A stretch of DNA of 8,398 nt from a virus (lineage: Duplodnaviria; Heunggongvirae; Uroviricota; Caudoviricetes): IMG/VR virus record IMGVR_UViG_2740892028_000003; one strand, written 5' to 3'. This document shows positions 1-8,398 of this stretch, in pieces. Each line of letters starts with the position of its first letter. The first letter of the stretch is position 1. The position numbers and the translations under genes are program-made. The notes beneath the pieces are model-generated. The model did not search any database and was not told the origin of the DNA. It was given only the letters and a program-made list of their open reading frames with translations.

Positions 1-289
1 TCTGCAGGTCTTCCGCCATCCCGGTGACCATGCCGTGCAGGTTAGAGACCGTCAGTGTCGGACGGGTAGCACTACCCTTACCGTTCAGTTCAAATCCCGT
101 CCCCTGAATAGGGTATACCTGATACTGCCGCCCCTGCCAGGTGACCGGCTCACCTTTTTCGTTCTGCTCATTACAGAAAAAATAACGTTCACCACCGACC
201 TCTGTCAGATCGATTTCCCAGAGCACCACCTGGGCTGACTGAGTAAGGCGTGTCGTCTCATGATGTGTTTCCTGTCGTATGTCCTGCAT
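1..289 (-). CDS. L: Minor tail protein L (lambda gpL-like), 5' part only; the gene continues beyond the left edge of the window
   Basis: Minus-strand frame is open from ATG at 289-287 to position 2 (96 codons: [96 protein letters not shown]). It is absent from the ORF track because it has no stop inside the window. It is nearly identical to the N-terminus of phage lambda gpL as I recall it (about a dozen substitutions in 96 residues). Its start overlaps the upstream gene's stop as TGATG. Confidence 0.9.
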   Translation of the reverse strand, partial: MQDIRQETHHETTRLTQSAQVVLWEIDLTEVGGERYFFCNEQNEKGEPVTWQGRQYQVYPIQGTGFELNGKGSATRPTLTVSNLHGMVTGMAEDLQ

Positions 290-627
290 CAGATCACCAC
301 TTCGTCAAACTGACACGAAAAATCGGTATAGGTGATATGTTCTGTCGCTGACCACGTTCGACACACCACTCTGATTTTTCTGTTAATACCCGGCGGGCGC
401 CAAAAAAAAGATTTATAGCCTCCATGCCGAGCCAGAAACAGTTCAAATGAATTACGTTCATTCGCCTCAACCCTGAAATCACAGGTAAAAACACGCAGAG
501 AATGATTAAGTCCGTTTGGGCTTCGTTGTTCATAACCATCGCCAAATCTTACAGTTTTTATCGATGGCTTATTTTCTGTTTTCATTCCATCCTCTGGTAA
601 CCAGTAAAATTCTTCCGTATTAGCCAC
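289..627 (-). CDS. M: Minor tail protein M (lambda gpM-like), 112 aa, GTG start
   Basis: ORF-track frame 289..627. The start codon at 627-625 is GTG, preceded by GGAGGAA with ~6 nt spacing. The protein aligns colinearly with lambda gpM as I recall it (shared VRFGDGY.QR, GLN, HGG.KSF.W.PP, V.C..WS and a C-terminal F.EVV motif). It overlaps the tape measure stop by 8 nt and the L start by 1 nt. Confidence 0.88.
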
Positions 628-3600
628 TTAACATTCCTCCATCACGTCGCATATTTAACAGAGCGCCCTGCACCCGCTGATCAACCATCCCCATAAGTGC
701 TTTTATTGCCTGAGGACCAATCTCTCCATTCTGGCCGTCATTTTGAATAGTGATTTGGTATACAGGGGCATAAGTAATATCTCTGCCTCCATTACCACTT
801 TTACTATTAATAGCTCTGACACCAAGAGAACCATCGGAAGTTCGCGTTAATGGCATAATAGCTTCCGGTCCAGCCTCACCAAAAACACCAGCTCCTTTTG
901 CAAAAGCAAAAAATTGCGGGGAGTCATAAATACCGTTCGAATATGTACTCAATGACGGAGACTCATAAACACCGCCCTTTGCATTCGGAATAAATTTACT
1001 AATAGCACTCCCGATAGTTCCTAAAATACCCCCAGAAGAACTGTTACTAATGCTGTCGAAAATCCCAGTAATTGAAGCCTTTAATGCAATTCGGCTAAGA
1101 TCTGAAATCACGGAAGTAGCGAAAGAACGAAAATTTGCCTTGCCTGTCGTGACAAAATCACCTAGCGCATCGGTCATCCCATCAAACATCTGAGTCGTGG
1201 TTGATTTTATTTGCGCACCGATATCCTTAGTGTCATCCAGCCAGTTATTGAATCCCTGGGAGGCACCACTAATCCAGTCTCCTGCCTGAATATCGAGCTG
1301 CTCGTTTTTCTGGCTGACAATTTCTTTTTCTCGCTCCAGAGCATCATTCAGAGCCTGCATTTTCTCCTGAAAAACATGATTTGACATTCCACGGGATTTA
1401 TCTGCATAGTCACGTTCAAGTTGCAGACGCTGATTGTTATATTCACGTTCAATCCGCAGTAATTCCTGCTGGCGTTGCTGATTTTTATCGCCAACCCCAT
1501 AACCAGCAATCTGAATATCATACCCCTGCTGACGATTATCAATCGAAGCCTGCAATGAATCACGCCATGCGGCTATTTCGGCGGATTCTTTGATTAGCCT
1601 GTTATTTTTTTCAATCGCAACATTTTTCTCCATCAACGCGGTTATTTCTTCCCGGTGTAAGAGAAGCGATTTCTGATCCTGGGTTAATTTCGATGACGGT
1701 CGTGACTCCAGGTCGGCAATCTGCTGACGCCACTTAACCAGTTCCTGTTCAGAGGAACTTAATTTAACGGTCAATTCAGCTTGTGAACTTAGTAACGCAT
1801 TCTGTTGATTCAGATGATCAATCATTCGTTGGGCAGCATCATCCGAATAACCTTTCGCCTTTGGTTGCTTTGGATCTTTATAACGCTCATTTATTTGAGC
1901 GATAAGATTATTATATTCTTCCTTTGAATACTGATTCTTTAGCTTTTCCAGTTTTGCAAGTTCACTAGCTCTCTGCTGCTCCCGGGTCTGATATTGTTTT
2001 GAAAAAGCATCTGCTCTCTGTCTGAGTTCAATTCCTTCCTGTTGTCGCTTGTTGTAATCGTTTATTGATGAATTTAGTACGTCCTGAGCAATTTTTTCTG
2101 CTTGAAGTACGCCCAATTGCTGCTTTAATCGTGCCAGCTTTTTATTTTGAGCTCCGCCATCTCCAATGCCACCTAACCCGAAAACTCCGGGTCGGGTATT
2201 TTTTTCTATTTCATCAATTTGACGGAGAACATCTGAGATTTTTTGATCAAGGGAGGCCTCACGGCCAATATCCAGCATGGAATCCCATGCCCATTTTGCG
2301 GAGTCTGCGACAGCTTTCCATGCAGTCTCAAGATAACCAAGATTTTCTTTAATCTGGTTGGTGCGCTGGATCATTGAGGATGAGTATGCTTCTGTCGCAA
2401 TGCGGGCGGCCTCCTGCTGGTTCCCTTCATCCTGTAGCGCCTTAATCTGGTTATAAGTCGCAAGTGTCAGAAAATGGTACTGATCATTAAGTTTTGATAT
2501 AGCACTGACAGGATCCTTTGCAATTTCATTGAAGTCATTAACCAGTTGTTCGGTTGATATTCCTGTTACTTCGCTCGTTTTTACTATCGCTGTCGTCACT
2601 TGCTCCAGCGAACTGCTCGCTACCTTTCCCGAACGCACAAGCTGGTTTAATACTGCCGCCGCAGCGCCAGTTGTCGAATCAGCCGCATTCCCGGCACGTT
2701 GAGCTATATCGGCCAATTGCCCGCTGGTTGTCCCCAACTGATTTCCGGTAAGAATAAGAGATTTATTAAATTCGTCCTGCTCCTGAGAGCCTTTATAGTA
2801 AGCCAGCCCTAAGACGCCAACGGCTGCTGCGGCCAGGGTAAAAGGATTAATTAATCCCAGCACATAAGAACCTACACCTTTGATCGCCGGGCCAATCCCA
2901 CCGAACATATCTTTTAGCTGGCCGCCCTGCTGCATTAACACCATAAATGGCGACTGACCAGTGGACAACCCAACAACAATATCCGTCATTTGTGCAGGCA
3001 ACATGCGCATAGCAAAAGCCGTTTGTTTTGCCGACATTCCGGTTTTGCTTAATTGCGATTGAGTAACCTCAAGCTCACTCCGCATAGCACGAAGTTTTCC
3101 AGAAAGCTCCTCATACATTTCAGGAGAAAGCATCCCCTTAGCTTTTGCTTCATTGAGCTGTTTCTGTTGTTCTACCAGACGATTAAAAGCAGTTCCGACA
3201 GGATCAAGTTGAGCAATCAGACGTTGCAAAGCAGCAACCTGTTCATCATGTGCTTTTGCTGCTTCTCGCTCTGCCTGAGCCTCTCCGGTAAGCTCTCGCC
3301 GTGTTTCCTGTATTTTTCGGCTATAATTCTCAAACTGAGAACCATTTATTTTCCCGGATGCAAACGCAGCATTAAGTTCATCCTGCTGTTGTTCAAGATT
3401 TCTTAGCGCCGCAGCCAGAGGGTCGATCTTGTCCAGCATTCTTTGAAAGACCTGAGCCTGCGCTTCCTGCTGGGCGGCAGCAAGTTTTCCGGCCTTCTCG
3501 GCTTCTCTCTGCGCTTGCGCAACCCCGCTCAATTCCTCTGTGGTTTCATTAAGTTTACGGACAAGAAATTCATATTCTTCTTTATCAATAAGCCCTTTAT

Positions 3601-3853
3601 CGAAAAATTTCTTTAATTCAGAATAGCGTCGACCGACAGTATCAATTGCGGCACCAACTGGATCAATAGCTGCTTTTAATTTTGCGAGCGCGTTCTTCTC
3701 ATCTTCTGTTGCCTTAGTCACTTTCCCTGCGCTATTTGCAGCAGTTTCCCCAGCCTGCGTCATTTTGACTAATGAGGAGGCCAGATTGTCAGCATTATTT
3801 TTCGCTCCAGTGCTATCAATAATTATTGCGAGACGCGAGGTTTGCTCTGCCAT
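620..3853 (-). CDS. H: Tail tape measure protein (lambda gpH-like), 1077 aa
   Basis: Largest ORF in the window, ATG at 3853-3851 preceded by an in-frame TGA and by AGGAG ~9 nt upstream. It sits between the chaperone and gpM homologues. It shares with lambda gpH, as I recall it, the MAE N-terminus, the [10 protein letters not shown]...GQSP...LQQGGQ.KD.FGG block and the C-terminal NDG.NG.IGP.A.KA....MRDGG block. The N-terminal third is Ala/Glu/Gln/Lys-rich coiled-coil-like sequence, typical of tape measure proteins. Confidence 0.95.
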
Positions 3854-3870
3854 TCATTAAAACTCCTGAC

Positions 3871-3896
3871 AACAAAAAACCCACCGAAGTGGGTTT
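3871..3896 (-). terminator. Rho-independent terminator-like hairpin just upstream of the tape measure RBS
   Basis: On the minus (mRNA-sense) strand: 5'-AAACCCAC-UUCG-GUGGGUUU-3' (3896..3877), a perfect 8-bp stem with a C(UUCG)G tetraloop, running straight into a U-rich tract (UUUGUUGU, 3876..3869). The tape measure SD (AGGAG) and ATG follow within ~20 nt. Confidence 0.55.
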
Positions 3897-4016
3897 CAGG
3901 CGACATAATAGTAGATATAGCGATTACGAGGCCACGCAATGCTTTTCTCCAGGAGCATCATCGATTTAATTAAAGACACCATCACATCTCTGTAACAGAG
4001 TGTACGTAATTAACAA

Positions 4017-4786
4017 CTACACACACTGCTCCTGAAAATACTGGTCATCCAGTGCAAAGATCACTGCTTCAAATTCATCGCGCTCAATCAATACCGGATG
4101 AGTGGCTAAATATTCATTTATCTCTGTCAGAGATAAAGGCAAAGGCACCCCAGTCATTCCAGCATAACGTCGGGCACGGGATATTACCGAATAGGCGTAC
4201 AACAATTCCTTAAGCACCGGGTCTATTTCTGGTTCCGGTATCGGTGGCAACCTGAGTTTTTCTCGCTTCCATCTTGCCTTTTCACCCTTTTCTCCCCCGA
4301 ACTCCGATAACCACCGCTGGGCGGCTATGGCTTTTTTATCGTATCCTGCTTCTGCTGCTCTTTACCCTGGGCGATGCTGGCTGCTTCTGCAAGGATCTGC
4401 CAGTACAACTCCGGATTCTGCTTAAGCAGCGCGATCCCTCGTTCTGGCGTATATTCCAGTGCAACCTCAACACCATCAACCAGTTCACCAACCCCTTTCC
4501 AGTCTTTCAGCAGATAACGAGCAGCATTATCAATGAGTAAATCATCAACAGAATCCACCTCGGAAACCTTTGCAATATCAAACTCCTTCGTTCCGACGTG
4601 CAAACTGGCATCCATTTTCTCAATGTGGCGACGGATTAATGCATTACGGGAGCGATACTGATCGTTATCGCTGCTTGCCACCAACAGTTTTAACCCGTCT
4701 ACAGGTTTTAAGTCCTTCATTGGGGTAAACCAGCGTTCACCACCGATGATAATTTTCTGATTAAGAATAAACATCCATAACCTCAT
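4017..4786 (-). CDS. Tail assembly chaperone GT fusion, predicted product of a programmed -1 frameshift at 4337..4331 (G frame 4786..4331, then -1 frame to the stop at 4019..4017)
   Basis: The -1 frame is open with no stop from the slippery heptamer through to the stop at 4019-4017, reading ...DTIKK/AIAAQRWLSEFGGEKGEKARWKREKLRLPPIPEPEIDPVLKELLYAYSV...QEQCV. The track's 4017..4250 ORF is the tail of this frame, reported from an internal TTG. A G/GT pair immediately upstream of the tape measure gene is the conserved siphovirus arrangement. Confidence 0.7.
4325..4786 (-). CDS. Tail assembly chaperone (lambda gpG analogue), 153 aa; a second ATG at 4774 with a better-spaced GAGG may be the true start (149 aa)
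   Basis: ORF-track frame 4325..4786, assigned by position between the major tail protein and tape measure genes. It is acidic and ends two codons after an A_AAA_AAG slippery heptamer. ATG 4774-4772 is preceded by GAGG with 6-7 nt spacing; ATG 4786 is preceded by GGGGGG at ~8 nt. Confidence 0.78.
   Translation of the reverse strand: MRLWMFILNQKIIIGGERWFTPMKDLKPVDGLKLLVASSDNDQYRSRNALIRRHIEKMDASLHVGTKEFDIAKVSEVDSVDDLLIDNAARYLLKDWKGVGELVDGVEVALEYTPERGIALLKQNPELYWQILAEAASIAQGKEQQKQDTIKKP
4331..4337 (-). other. -1 ribosomal frameshift slippery heptamer A_AAA_AAG (recoding signal)
   Basis: Minus-strand codons ATA AAA AAG CCA TAG: the heptamer A-AAA-AAG sits in the zero frame (X_XXY_YYZ) two codons before the G stop. 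The + strand shows it as CTTTTTT at 4331..4337. Confidence 0.7.
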
Positions 4787-4795
4787 TCAATGCGC

Positions 4796-4822
4796 CCCCC
4801 TGTAGTGCAGTACCACAGGGGG
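4796..4822 (-). promoter_or_regulatory. Intercistronic stem-loop between the major tail protein and chaperone genes
   Basis: Minus strand 5'-CCCCCUGU-(11-nt loop GGUACUGCACU)-ACAGGGGG-3': a perfect 8-bp stem with 6 G-C pairs, no U-tract after it. The 3' arm G-run lies 8-9 nt upstream of ATG 4786. Confidence 0.4.
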
Positions 4823-4834
4823 AATAACGGAAAA

Positions 4835-5797
4835 TCAACTAATCGCCTCAGCACTGGCTTTTGCGATCACGGCAGCCGGGGAGGCTTTTTTTCTGGTTAT
4901 CGTAGGTGCTTCATCTGCTGCGGTAATGCTCAATTGAACCTGGATAATGTCGGTATTACCCCCATCAGGCCATTCACCTGACATCTGAACCTTCGGGAAA
5001 CTGAAAGTGTATGCCCCCTCTCCATTCGAAAGCGTGAAGCTGAACGGAACTGTTTCTCCAGTCAGTGTTTTACTCCAGATTTCCCACGCGGCTTTAGACC
5101 ATGAAAGCGTCACCGTACCGGACGGTGTAAAAGTAGTCGGAATATTTGCTCCTGCATAAGGCGAGCCAGTCCCGATACAACGCTGTGTCTGGAGTTTGTT
5201 ATCGAACTGAATATCAAAACTGTCGATACAAAAACCGTTACCTCCGGCAACACCATTCAGGCTTACTGCTGAAACCTCCTTAAACGAATAACGTAGCTTT
5301 CCTGCACTATCCACAGGTTCGCCTTTGATAAAATTCGTATCATCGGCCTTTGATTCCCAGTCCAGCCCGGCAAAGGTTACGGTCGCCGTAATATCGCCGT
5401 CGTTAGGGATCTGCATTTTCCATGAGCCAACCTGCGCTCCTCTGACAACAGAGGCAATTCCGACATCGGACGCATAGGTCGCCAGAGAAAATGTTATTCG
5501 CTCATTCCCCATTGTCAGAGAATCACCTGACCATTCCGCGCCGAAACAGGATGCAAGAAAATCATCATGTTGACCCCAGCGAAATTTGGTACCAACATCA
5601 CCGCCAACATCCACAGTGCCAGGCGTCGCCCCCTGAGCCATCCGGGAGCCACCAATCTCATTATTTTCGCCTTTATTCTGGGTGGGTTTTACTCCCCAGC
5701 TTGTGCGTTTTAATAAACTCCAGTCACCACTTGCTGGTGTGGTGCCTGCAACTGTCTCCCGGATAAATGCCGAGATAACCTTTGCACCTGAACTCAC
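4835..5797 (-). CDS. Major tail (tube) protein, 320 aa, GTG start
   Basis: ORF-track frame 4835..5797. The start at 5797-5795 is GTG with a strong AGGAGG 5 nt upstream. Gly/Thr/Ser-rich, beta-type composition. Assigned by conserved position immediately upstream of the G/GT chaperone pair; it does not obviously resemble lambda gpV. Confidence 0.7.
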   Translation of the reverse strand: MSSGAKVISAFIRETVAGTTPASGDWSLLKRTSWGVKPTQNKGENNEIGGSRMAQGATPGTVDVGGDVGTKFRWGQHDDFLASCFGAEWSGDSLTMGNERITFSLATYASDVGIASVVRGAQVGSWKMQIPNDGDITATVTFAGLDWESKADDTNFIKGEPVDSAGKLRYSFKEVSAVSLNGVAGGNGFCIDSFDIQFDNKLQTQRCIGTGSPYAGANIPTTFTPSGTVTLSWSKAAWEIWSKTLTGETVPFSFTLSNGEGAYTFSFPKVQMSGEWPDGGNTDIIQVQLSITAADEAPTITRKKASPAAVIAKASAEAIS

Positions 5798-5823
5798 AGG
5801 AGCCTCCTATGTCATTAATTGCG

Positions 5824-6216
5824 CTAGAGCGCGCGATATGGAATTTGAAGATTAAGCTGGAACCAGCCATTCTTTTCGCCAACGGTTATTGAGGAAACAG
5901 CCTGGTAACTGAGACGGTCGTCATCCTGAAACTCAAACAGTTCCCGCAATTTATCGGCTGTCTCAGTAATGAGTTTTGAACCAGAACCTGCGGGGACAAA
6001 TAACTGAATAATGATTATTCCCGTGCGATAAACAACCGGCCCCGCACCAATTTCATTAACTCCAGCCTGCCCGGGAATATTACTTAACCGCGCCCAGATT
6101 AACTTACCGGAAGGATCGAACGTTGGCCCGTTCGGATACAATACGTCTTTTCCATTAATAACCGTCTGTGCCGTCATTCTGGAAATGACCGTATTTCTGA
6201 TTTCAGTAAACGTCAT
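5824..6216 (-). CDS. Tail terminator / tail completion protein (lambda gpU-like position), 130 aa
   Basis: ORF-track frame 5824..6216. The size and position match the gene immediately upstream of the major tail protein gene. Weak resemblance to lambda gpU as I recall it (IIQLFVPAG versus IEVFLPAQ). The ATG overlaps the upstream stop as ATGA. Confidence 0.55.
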   Translation of the reverse strand: MTFTEIRNTVISRMTAQTVINGKDVLYPNGPTFDPSGKLIWARLSNIPGQAGVNEIGAGPVVYRTGIIIIQLFVPAGSGSKLITETADKLRELFEFQDDDRLSYQAVSSITVGEKNGWFQLNLQIPYRAL

Positions 6217-6593
6217 TTGTAAGCCTGTAAAACACCATGAAAAGCGTTGGCATACACGCCAGTTGGCGCTTGTTGTGAATGACCGTTTTCAAGAGCCTCT
6301 GCATAAGGAAGGTTATTCTGGATATAAATAATTCCGTAATTTGCAGCTTTCGAAATAACCCCGATCCCACGCTGAACCGCAATCGTACCGTTCGGATCCA
6401 CGTTATCAGATATACCAAAATCGGGATGCTGTAACGACACCATGTTGTTATTTCTGAAACGCCCGGTATCAACCGGAGCAGCAATATCGATAGCAGTAAG
6501 AATCTGAATAGCGATGTAGCGAATTTTCAGCCCCACATCTTCCTCAATCATCCCGGCAAATATTGACGGTTCGATATCCCATGCCTTTGCCAT
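6213..6593 (-). CDS. Tail-component / neck protein, 126 aa (possibly HK97 gp10-family-like)
   Basis: ORF-track frame 6213..6593, with AAGGAG 7 nt upstream of the ATG. It contains an AP.DTGR.RN motif that I associate with the HK97 gp10-like tail-component family. Its position is within the head-tail joining block. Confidence 0.5.
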   Translation of the reverse strand: MAKAWDIEPSIFAGMIEEDVGLKIRYIAIQILTAIDIAAPVDTGRFRNNNMVSLQHPDFGISDNVDPNGTIAVQRGIGVISKAANYGIIYIQNNLPYAEALENGHSQQAPTGVYANAFHGVLQAYK

Positions 6594-6980
6594 TTACGCT
6601 CTCCTTAACTGGATTGAGTAAACTGATGCGGAAGGATCTACACTCGCTGTAATTACCTCGTATCGTTGCAACTGCCTTGATACAGGATCATAAATCTCAA
6701 TAATATGGCCGACAGCGGGTTTATCCGTAACCTCGCATACCAGAGCTGTTAATTTAAGGTCACCATGCAAAATATTAATCCCATCAATTCTGCCCAGCTT
6801 ATAACGCGTCAACACGCCTCGCCCGGTATAGGTTGCTGTGGATTCGCCGCCAGTTTCCGTCACTGGATTCCAGTTCCGGTGCGCAACGTAAGAACCAGAA
6901 AAATCACTCACGGCGTCTGCTAAATCCTCATCAAAAGCAGCGGCAACCTCTGACTGAATCTCTTCACGAAGCCCCATCAT
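6594..6980 (-). CDS. Head-tail joining / head completion protein, 128 aa
   Basis: ORF-track frame 6594..6980, with a GAGGGGGG SD just upstream. The size and position fit a head-tail joining protein; the stop/start arrangement (TAAATG and ATGA) indicates translational coupling to its neighbours. Confidence 0.5.
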   Translation of the reverse strand: MMGLREEIQSEVAAAFDEDLADAVSDFSGSYVAHRNWNPVTETGGESTATYTGRGVLTRYKLGRIDGINILHGDLKLTALVCEVTDKPAVGHIIEIYDPVSRQLQRYEVITASVDPSASVYSIQLRRA

Positions 6981-7372
6981 CCCCCCCTCACAACCCTGAC
7001 TTGTGAGCGACTAAGTCCGTACGGTTTCAGCAGTGCTATCGCAAGCTGTAAATCGGGTTCAAGCAATGCAGTGCTGTTTGCTGGCAATTCAGCAAATGAT
7101 TTCGATACACTGACCCCGTCAGCCGACACGGCTTTACTGATAACAACGCCAGAATCATTTTTCTGCTGAAACAACTTACCGACAGAGGCAATTCTGGCTG
7201 CATATGCTCCCGCAAGTTTTACCTCTTCCGGAATACGGGATGGGTTAATTTTCAGGCCGAAGCCATTAAGCCAGGCATTAGCCATTAAAACAGCTTTATT
7301 TTTAGCGTTCTCACTCGTCCAGGCGTTCCCAAACGCATTATCAACGTCATCACAGGTCACGTAAGTGATCAT
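6977..7372 (-). CDS. Head-tail connector (adaptor) protein, 131 aa
   Basis: ORF-track frame 6977..7372, with AGGAG 7 nt upstream of the ATG. The N-terminal region (MITYVTCDDVDNAFG...KAVLMANAWLNG) resembles the gp6-like head-tail connector family in general character. It is the first gene of the connector block after the head genes. Confidence 0.5.
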   Translation of the reverse strand: MITYVTCDDVDNAFGNAWTSENAKNKAVLMANAWLNGFGLKINPSRIPEEVKLAGAYAARIASVGKLFQQKNDSGVVISKAVSADGVSVSKSFAELPANSTALLEPDLQLAIALLKPYGLSRSQVRVVRGG

Positions 7373-7375
7373 GTG

Positions 7376-7600
7376 TTACTCCTGAGTTTTCCAGCCCAGA
7401 GCCTTCCAGTTGTCAACTTCATCAGGATGAACATTAGCGATAGTTGGTGCGCCGGGAAACATCTGATAATCGGTCACCATAACCACTAACTCAATTTGCG
7501 TTTTTTGTGGCTCCTGAATTTGCTCCACATTTTGCTCCACCACTGCATTTTTTTGCGCGGCTTCACGCTGTGCTCTTTGCTCTTTAGTTAATCCGGCCAT
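7376..7600 (-). CDS. Small hypothetical protein, 74 aa, function unknown
   Basis: ORF-track frame 7376..7600. The ATG at 7600 is preceded by GGAGGG 3 nt upstream and lies directly downstream of the hairpin terminator. Gln/Glu-rich N-terminal half. No family recognised. Confidence 0.55.
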   Translation of the reverse strand: MAGLTKEQRAQREAAQKNAVVEQNVEQIQEPQKTQIELVVMVTDYQMFPGAPTIANVHPDEVDNWKALGWKTQE

Positions 7601-7612
7601 ATACCCTCCATT

Positions 7613-7632
7613 AAAAATGGGGCCGAAGCCCC
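7613..7632 (-). terminator. Rho-independent terminator-like hairpin between the 206-aa gene and the 74-aa gene
   Basis: Minus strand 5'-GGGGC-UUCG-GCCCC-3' (7632..7619): a perfect 5-bp G/C stem with a C(UUCG)G tetraloop, followed by A then UUUUU (7617..7613). It lies 10 nt after the TAA stop of the 206-aa gene and just before the SD of the 74-aa gene. Confidence 0.5.
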
Positions 7633-7642
7633 GTTTGGATGT

Positions 7643-8263
7643 TTAACCAAGAATCAGACAACCATGTGCCGGTTTCACTGACGAAACACCCCATGCCAGT
7701 CCAACTTCATAGCGCACCTGGCGATACTGACGATACAGTGCAATCTGGAACGTAATCCCTGAAATCGGGTCCGTAACATTCATTACATCATCAGCATTAT
7801 CGCCACCTTCCGGCATTGCCGGAGTACGGGATGCCAGCAGAAACGCGTTGCGATCAAACGCCATATTTGCAGTAAAGGAGCCAACAACTGTGATTGCAGT
7901 ATCATCGGCCAGATCCTGACGCAGTCCCGGTGCTGCAAGAGTAATCAGATTGCTGGTCGCTGCTGCCACAACATACTGATTAGGATCGCCAGCGAACGTA
8001 ACAATCTGACCTGCAGAAATACTCCCCGAACCAGTATCAATGGAAATAAGAACATCGCCTTCTTTTTTCTCGCCATTCACGAGATAACCAGTTGCAGCAA
8101 CCTTTGGCGCTCGTTTTACACCTGCCGAACTGTGAATATTGAATCCCTCCAGACGCCCCAACACGCCCTCACGCAGTAGCTGTTCAGTGCCGGATTCATT
8201 CACTTTAAACAATACAGACTGTTTTCCGCGCAAATTAGCAATGGCAGTGGAACCAAGCACCAT
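7643..8263 (-). CDS. Phage structural protein of uncertain identity, 206 aa, in the position normally occupied by the major capsid gene
   Basis: ORF-track frame 7643..8263. Gly/Ser/Thr/Val/Ala-rich, beta-type composition. It is followed by a hairpin terminator, as is common after highly expressed capsid genes. No clear SD precedes the ATG at 8263, and at 206 aa it is smaller than typical HK97-fold capsid proteins. Confidence 0.6.
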   Translation of the reverse strand: MVLGSTAIANLRGKQSVLFKVNESGTEQLLREGVLGRLEGFNIHSSAGVKRAPKVAATGYLVNGEKKEGDVLISIDTGSGSISAGQIVTFAGDPNQYVVAAATSNLITLAAPGLRQDLADDTAITVVGSFTANMAFDRNAFLLASRTPAMPEGGDNADDVMNVTDPISGITFQIALYRQYRQVRYEVGLAWGVSSVKPAHGCLILG

Positions 8264-8398
8264 CTGCAGATCTGTTGTCGGTGCGCCGTTATCCTCCAGA
8301 ACCTGACGAGCCAGAGCAGCATCAGAAAGATCATTGAACCGCCCCGGAAATCCTGGAGACTAAACTCCCTGAGAAAGAGGTAAACAGGATGACTAAAA

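Follow-up and report, generated by a model that had tools for sequence, protein, structure and literature searches.

The right end of the window, by which we mean the whole 8398-bp stretch of DNA analysed here (the entire contig LRWH01000115.1 of the draft assembly GCA_001561435.1), carries a minus-strand open reading frame (7643-8263) that encodes 206 amino acids from an ATG start codon (SPGFPGRFNDLSDAALARQVLEDNGAPTTDLQ). A preliminary description placed it at the position of a capsid gene and proposed that it is (i) a genuine small decoration or capsid-associated protein with a weak start, (ii) the C-terminal portion of a longer head gene interrupted by an amber codon, either a pseudogene or dependent on suppression, or (iii) a mis-set frame. 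The observations underlying these proposals were all reproduced. When the minus strand was read from the end of the window, in-frame TAG codons were found at 8395-8393 and 8362-8360, the 32 in-frame codons located between the latter and the start codon (8359-8264) included no ATG, GTG or TTG, and no Shine-Dalgarno-like motif was found upstream of the ATG at 8263. Scanning both strands of the 7300-8398 region likewise returned no promoter-like site. The terminator noted after the gene was recovered as a GGGGC-TTCG-GCCCC hairpin followed by a T-run, 3' of the stop codon, and the window does end too soon to display the remainder of the gene.

To which gene the ORF belongs was established by comparison with intact prophages. 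Positions 1-8334 of the window are 100.0% identical to prophages of complete E. coli genomes (NZ_OZ040973.1, 042, APEC O1 and others), and in every genome the identity ends exactly at 8334. In these prophages, the gene is 1140 nt long and encodes a 379-aa protein annotated as 'P22 phage major capsid protein family protein'. Alignment with the E. coli 042 gene for WP_000918489.1 showed that base 8334 of the window is nt 449 of the intact gene, the second base of codon D150, and that the ATG at 8263 is the codon of an internal methionine, Met174. From 8334 to the stop codon, 692 of 692 nt match in the same frame, which disposes of the mis-set frame. The two alleles show no nucleotide difference over codons 150-379, nor in the surrounding 8.3 kb; however, WP_000918489.1, which is present in E. 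coli 042 and many other strains, also holds codons 1-149 and its own start, ~98 nt downstream of the DUF6651 gene, whereas the window copy has neither. The features of this region are as follows.

7612-7632, minus strand: terminator-like hairpin GGGGC-TTCG-GCCCC (7632-7619) followed by ATTTTT, 11 nt after the capsid stop codon, recognised by consensus scan only
7643-8263, minus strand: 206-aa ORF as called by gene finders, whose start is the internal Met174 and has no SD-like motif
7643-8334, minus strand: 3' fragment of a P22-type major capsid gene, nt 449-1140, D150-G379 and TAA (692/692 nt; PF11651, PHROG 283 and AF2 model)
8335-8398, plus strand: left end of IS629 (IS3 family), first 64 of 1310 bp, running rightward off the contig (64/64 nt)
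8335-8359, plus strand: left terminal inverted repeat of IS629, 25 bp, beginning TGAACCGCCCCGG (AP000422.1 feature)
8360-8362, minus strand: in-frame TAG that closes the 32-codon extension, IS629 sequence read on the opposite strand and not an amber mutation of the capsid gene
8389-8398, plus strand: start of IS629 orfA (ATGACTAAAA...), ATG at 8389, first 10 nt, cut by the contig end (AP000422.1 CDS H0117)

The sequence that takes over beyond base 8334 belongs to an insertion sequence. When the 8398-7400 segment was compared to phage records by megablast, it was split into two blocks: the 8334-7400 block matched phage genes annotated 'coat protein', and the block from 8398 to ~8334 matched only IS629/IS1203 ends, in ~170 records of Stx-converting phages that annotate the matched stretch as IS629, IS1203v or transposase. 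On the plus strand, the 64 bases at 8335-8398 are identical (64/64 nt) to the left end of the IS629 copy of phage VT2-Sakai. We mapped the IS629 features onto the window from the annotation of this phage (AP000422.1), which at the match reads 'insertion sequence:IS629' and 'inverted repeat from left end of IS629' and places there the start of the 12-kDa orfA. The characteristic terminal inverted repeat beginning with TG is found at 8335-8359. The assignment to IS629 is to be read at the level of the element type, as IS1203-type isoforms match the 64-base stretch equally well and near-identical isoforms are indistinguishable on 64 bases. IS629 is a 1310-bp element of the IS3 family that is very common in E. 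coli O157:H7 and whose orfA/orfB transposase involves a programmed -1 frameshift.

The 32-codon extension upstream of the ATG can now be read codon by codon. It consists of 8 codons of IS629 read on the wrong strand, which translate as SPGFPGRF, one hybrid codon at the IS/coat boundary, in which N replaces D150, and 23 genuine coat codons before Met174 (DLSDAALARQVLEDNGAPTTDLQ, residues 151-173 of the intact protein). The TAG at 8362-8360 corresponds to IS629 bases 26-28, adjoining the 25-bp inverted repeat. The frame is thus open but devoid of a start codon because the reverse-complemented tip of the IS reads as sense codons up to this TAG, and a 206-aa gene is called because gene finders take the first in-frame start, the internal Met174. 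The 206-aa ORF does not constitute a separate gene, and the ATG at 8263 is not a genuine start. As this downstream fragment has neither a promoter-like site nor a ribosome-binding site, the 206-aa product is most likely not made and, if made, it would be unable to assemble.

Taken together, these results indicate that the 206-aa ORF is almost certainly the distal part of a 379-codon P22-type capsid gene that was cut by IS629 inside codon 150. The proposal of a C-terminal fragment, or pseudogene, of a larger head gene holds as far as the identity of the fragment is concerned, but the cause is IS629 and not an amber codon. An IS629 copy would have entered the gene within codon 150, the IS meeting the host DNA at 8335/8334, with its left end facing the capsid fragment and its transposase genes reading away from it on the plus strand. 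This insertion would divide the coat protein, cutting off its N-terminal part from the remainder. The IS copy, of which 64 bp are visible, is presumably complete and the insertion presumably a simple one, with the 5' 449 nt of the capsid gene located on the far side of the IS. IS629 insertion duplicates 3-4 bp of its target (Rump et al. 2011, PMC3271280). A simple insertion would thus leave capsid nt 1-451 or 1-452 abutting the right end of IS629 (which on the capsid sense strand would be TGAACCGCCCCGGTTTTCC), with ATG/ATGA as the 3-4-bp direct repeat, and the far junction would read ...GGTGTTAAAGATG(A) followed by TGAACCGCCCCGGTTTTCCTGGAGAG.

The alternative that survives best, and that we nevertheless regard as unlikely, is an IS-mediated deletion or rearrangement, by which the 5' 449 nt of the capsid gene would have been lost or moved, possibly along with the remainder of the head module, the window then being the remnant of a tail module. 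It departs from a simple insertion only as regards the sequence past the contig end. What speaks for it is that the other junction was absent from the searches of complete E. coli genomes, GTDB, JGI metagenomes and IMG/VR: the scan for the predicted N-terminal-side junction gave zero matches, and no exact match was obtained with the predicted N-terminal coat/IS fusion proteins (3- and 4-bp duplications and several truncations), although the latter negative says little, as the length of a partial gene at a contig end is unpredictable. In addition, matching duplicated bases were found on both sides at only 21 of 47 IS629 sites, and IS-mediated deletions are named as a source of diversity in O157 (PMC3271280). 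However, a simple insertion is the default outcome of transposition, and the missing far side is explained by the absence of the strain from the searchable DNA collections. Moreover, the 100% identity of 8334 bases to intact prophages suggests a very recent event that was not followed by further decay. This lack of decay likewise makes the IS629 insertion, as judged from the sequence, a probably recent one.

A second alternative, which we consider very improbable, is that the organism has an undisrupted capsid gene and that the 64 bases of IS629 were wrongly appended to the contig end during assembly. The junction is indeed found right at one extremity of a short-read draft contig, and other contigs with the same ORF have artefactual ends. 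A contig that ends shortly inside a multicopy IS is, however, the usual signature of a short-read assembler failing at a repeat, and the contig stops 64 bases into IS629 because this multicopy repeat was not crossed by the short-read assembly. Furthermore, the same IS/capsid junction, GGCGGTTCA|ATGATC, is present in the independent assemblies of two other public read sets, SRR12779484 and SRR12779533, the former having 0 mismatches over 2256 nt; it is therefore not a one-off assembly error. Finally, the break coincides precisely with the canonical TG...CA tip of the IS, as expected of a real insertion and not of a random chimera.

The occurrence of this junction was surveyed more broadly. It was absent from the 5,426 complete E. 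coli genomes of RefSeq, and exact junction scans of the GTDB species representative genomes, the JGI metagenomes and IMG/VR gave zero matches. Insertion at codon 150 of the P22-type coat gene in this prophage type thus appears rare (0 of 5,426 complete E. coli genomes). Two complete E. coli genomes with seemingly full coverage (H31 and H63) were discarded, as their IS3-family elements occupy other sites, upstream of an intact coat gene or in gpJ. Two further contigs with the same called ORF (L006 and L008) have no bearing on the junction, since they begin with sequencing adapters that continue into intact coat sequence. These contigs, from ERZ652109 and ERR2683186, start with untrimmed adapters of the Nextera type (ATGTGTATAAGAGACAG) and TruSeq type (AGACGTGTGCTCTTCCGATCT) (L006 positions 1-17 and L008 positions 1-~35). 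The fusion of the adapters to intact coat sequence yields the same spurious 206-aa gene call.

The identity of the fragment was further supported by profile and fold comparisons. Its 229 genuine residues match PHROG 283, 'major head protein', with an E-value of 6.9e-84, over positions 146-383 of the 385-position profile only. The Pfam P22 coat protein family (PF11651, cutoff 24) scored 37.2 bits with the 238-aa reading and 24.2 bits with the 206-aa reading, and the intact allele is also above the gathering score. HMMER, run exhaustively against 1.84 billion cluster representatives, identified 1426 relatives. Among the best 150 of these, 122 are 345-431 aa long, and the fragment aligns to their residues ~150-385. 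As the fragment covers only this part of the profile, it is a member of the family by descent and a truncated pseudogene: it retains residues 150-379 only, whereas a full-length member comprises ~380-430 aa with the N-arm, the E-loop and the spine helix. These three elements of the HK97 fold are presumably held by the part of the coat protein N-terminal of codon 150.

An AlphaFold2 model of the fragment was computed from an alignment of 44 of the HMMER relatives (mean pLDDT 88.1, pTM 0.73). It comprises 16 predicted strands and 3 predicted helices, in agreement with the earlier characterisation of the protein as beta-rich, and in this predicted model an HK97-type fold with an inserted beta-rich domain is recognised. 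When the PDB was searched with Foldseek, each of the 17 best matches was a coat protein of CUS-3, P22 or Sf6 (E-values from 5.6e-10 to 3e-7), with TM-scores of ~0.6-0.67 for the query and ~0.38 for the target, as expected for a partial protein. The coat proteins of P22 (gp5; 5UU5, 8I1V), Sf6 (gp5; 5L35) and CUS-3 (8SKG) share PF11651 with the fragment, and the predicted fragment superposes on their C-terminal 55-60%, beta-rich inserted domain included. However, the structure-based identity is only 12-16%, the intact allele is 379 aa long compared to ~420-430 aa for these coats, and the window copy is, in contrast to them, a truncated pseudogene. A PDB sequence search with the intact protein returned no coat protein, but only a chance-level match (E-value 0.38) to a phage stopper protein; establishing the relationship to the P22 coat therefore required profiles and fold comparison.

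These comparisons also bear on whether a genuine capsid-associated or decoration protein of ~206 aa starts at the ATG at 8263, an explanation that we consider exceedingly improbable. In the library of representatives at 50% identity, a few sequences of 202-211 aa do start nearby (P0051, P0109, P0148 and P0152). However, the short entries (202-231 aa) begin at differing alignment positions, some of them with V or L, as do fragments cut by contig ends, and a complete family of ~200 aa starting at the methionine, which had been named as the test of this proposal, was looked for by HMMER with the opposite result, the family being mostly 345-431 aa long. Moreover, the residues upstream of Met174 are conserved coat sequence, the ATG is preceded by no SD-like motif or promoter, and the exact 379-aa protein is found on 741 contigs versus 5 for the 206-aa ORF. 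Lastly, an amber (TAG) nonsense mutation, or a head gene dependent on suppression or recoding, as the in-frame TAGs had suggested, can be dismissed for all practical purposes, as the alignment to the intact gene is colinear only as far as 8334, which is 26 nt downstream of the nearer TAG, the 64/64 IS629 match includes both TAGs and, at the equivalent position, the intact gene is free of stop codons.

The genetic context is that of a head module. Downstream of the capsid fragment, PHROG matches identified the head-tail adaptor Ad1, the head closure protein Hc1 and a Neck1/tail completion protein, and Pfam matches identified, further downstream, the tail terminator and the tail tube; the capsid-gene position assigned in the preliminary description was confirmed by these matches. 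In intact relatives, the order is portal (DUF4055), minor head, DUF6651, capsid and head-tail connector genes, and the downstream half of this order is present in the window. The host element of the gene is a lambdoid, Rac-related E. coli prophage. The 153-aa protein of the PF27119 family (Phage_YdaY) encoded in the window is the counterpart of the gene labelled ydaY in the intact relatives, and ydaY is a gene of the Rac cryptic prophage of E. coli K-12. Rac and the window element are thus of the same prophage type and are both cases of prophage decay in E. coli; however, K-12 Rac lost most structural genes, whereas the window retains intact tail and connector modules that do not differ from those found in apparently complete prophages. 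In contrast to the podovirus context of P22-type coats, the coat gene is located here in a siphovirus-type prophage, with tape measure, tail tube and a putative G/GT chaperone.

Without an intact coat protein, the prophage would be unable to form heads and is expected to be defective in producing particles; we thus consider it probably non-productive. It represents one more case of inactivation of an E. coli prophage by IS629. Both IS629 and P22-type capsids are well known, and the disruption of prophage genes by IS629 is already well documented. In O157:H7 genomes, 62% of the IS629 copies are located within prophages or prophage-like elements, and the insertions described in prophages of O157:H7 and other STEC are comparable to the present one: the element is shared (64/64 nt at the left end), and so is the outcome, gene disruption (PMC3271280). 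In draft assemblies of O157:H7 and other STEC, IS629 insertions likewise appear as contig ends. For annotation, the 206-aa 'protein' is better described as a capsid pseudogene fragment beside an IS629 end than as a small structural protein or an amber mutant. This locus also illustrates a general trap: when a gene at the end of a draft contig has a frame that is open upstream but lacks a start, this frame may be reading into an IS terminal repeat. One might further speculate that a headless prophage with an undecayed tail module is an early step towards a tailocin-like, tail-only producer, or that the coat fragment is expressed and interferes with the capsid assembly of related superinfecting phages; the one observation behind these ideas, which we hold to be very doubtful, is that the tail genes are intact and 100% identical to those of functional-looking prophages.

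Several additional observations were made on the window and its relatives. The 74-aa gene located right after the capsid gene (7376-7600, minus strand) belongs to PHROG 1514, of unknown function, and many related prophages carry an allele of it that is 58 aa (177 nt) long; BLAST matches are therefore split into two pieces by this 48-nt in-frame difference in length. On the same strand, a slippery heptamer, A_AAA_AAG, is found at 4331-4337, correctly phased and two codons ahead of the TAG that ends the YdaY-family gene. A -1 shift at this site would join the 153-aa YdaY-family ORF (4325-4786; PF27119) to the downstream 77-aa ORF (4017-4250) with no intervening stop, yielding a 256-aa fusion. 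Judged from their sequence, these two ORFs look like the classic G/GT arrangement of tail assembly chaperones; in RefSeq, the relatives are annotated with 'protein YdaY' and a hypothetical protein as separate genes. At the other extremity, the left contig end cuts the gene of the minor tail protein L (1-289, minus strand; PF05100), of which 96 aa are visible. Lambdoid tail genes are often repeated among the prophages of one genome, and this end may also be a repeat-induced assembly break.

The annotation of the relatives is itself heterogeneous. In phage vB_EcoS-606R9, the coat CDS (L001 2460-3692) is 1233 nt long, 31 codons longer than the 1140-nt RefSeq call, the choice of the start codon thus differing between the two annotations, and the DUF6651 gene (L001 1618-2454), which possibly encodes a scaffolding protein, is also labelled 'coat protein'. 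The minor head protein of the same phage is labelled 'NAD+--asparagine ADP-ribosyltransferase', and the E. coli AH19B041 homologue of the head-closure gene (PHROG 161, Hc1; L011 12831-13214), the counterpart of window positions 6594-6980, is labelled 'glutamate 5-kinase'; these two labels are probably annotation errors.
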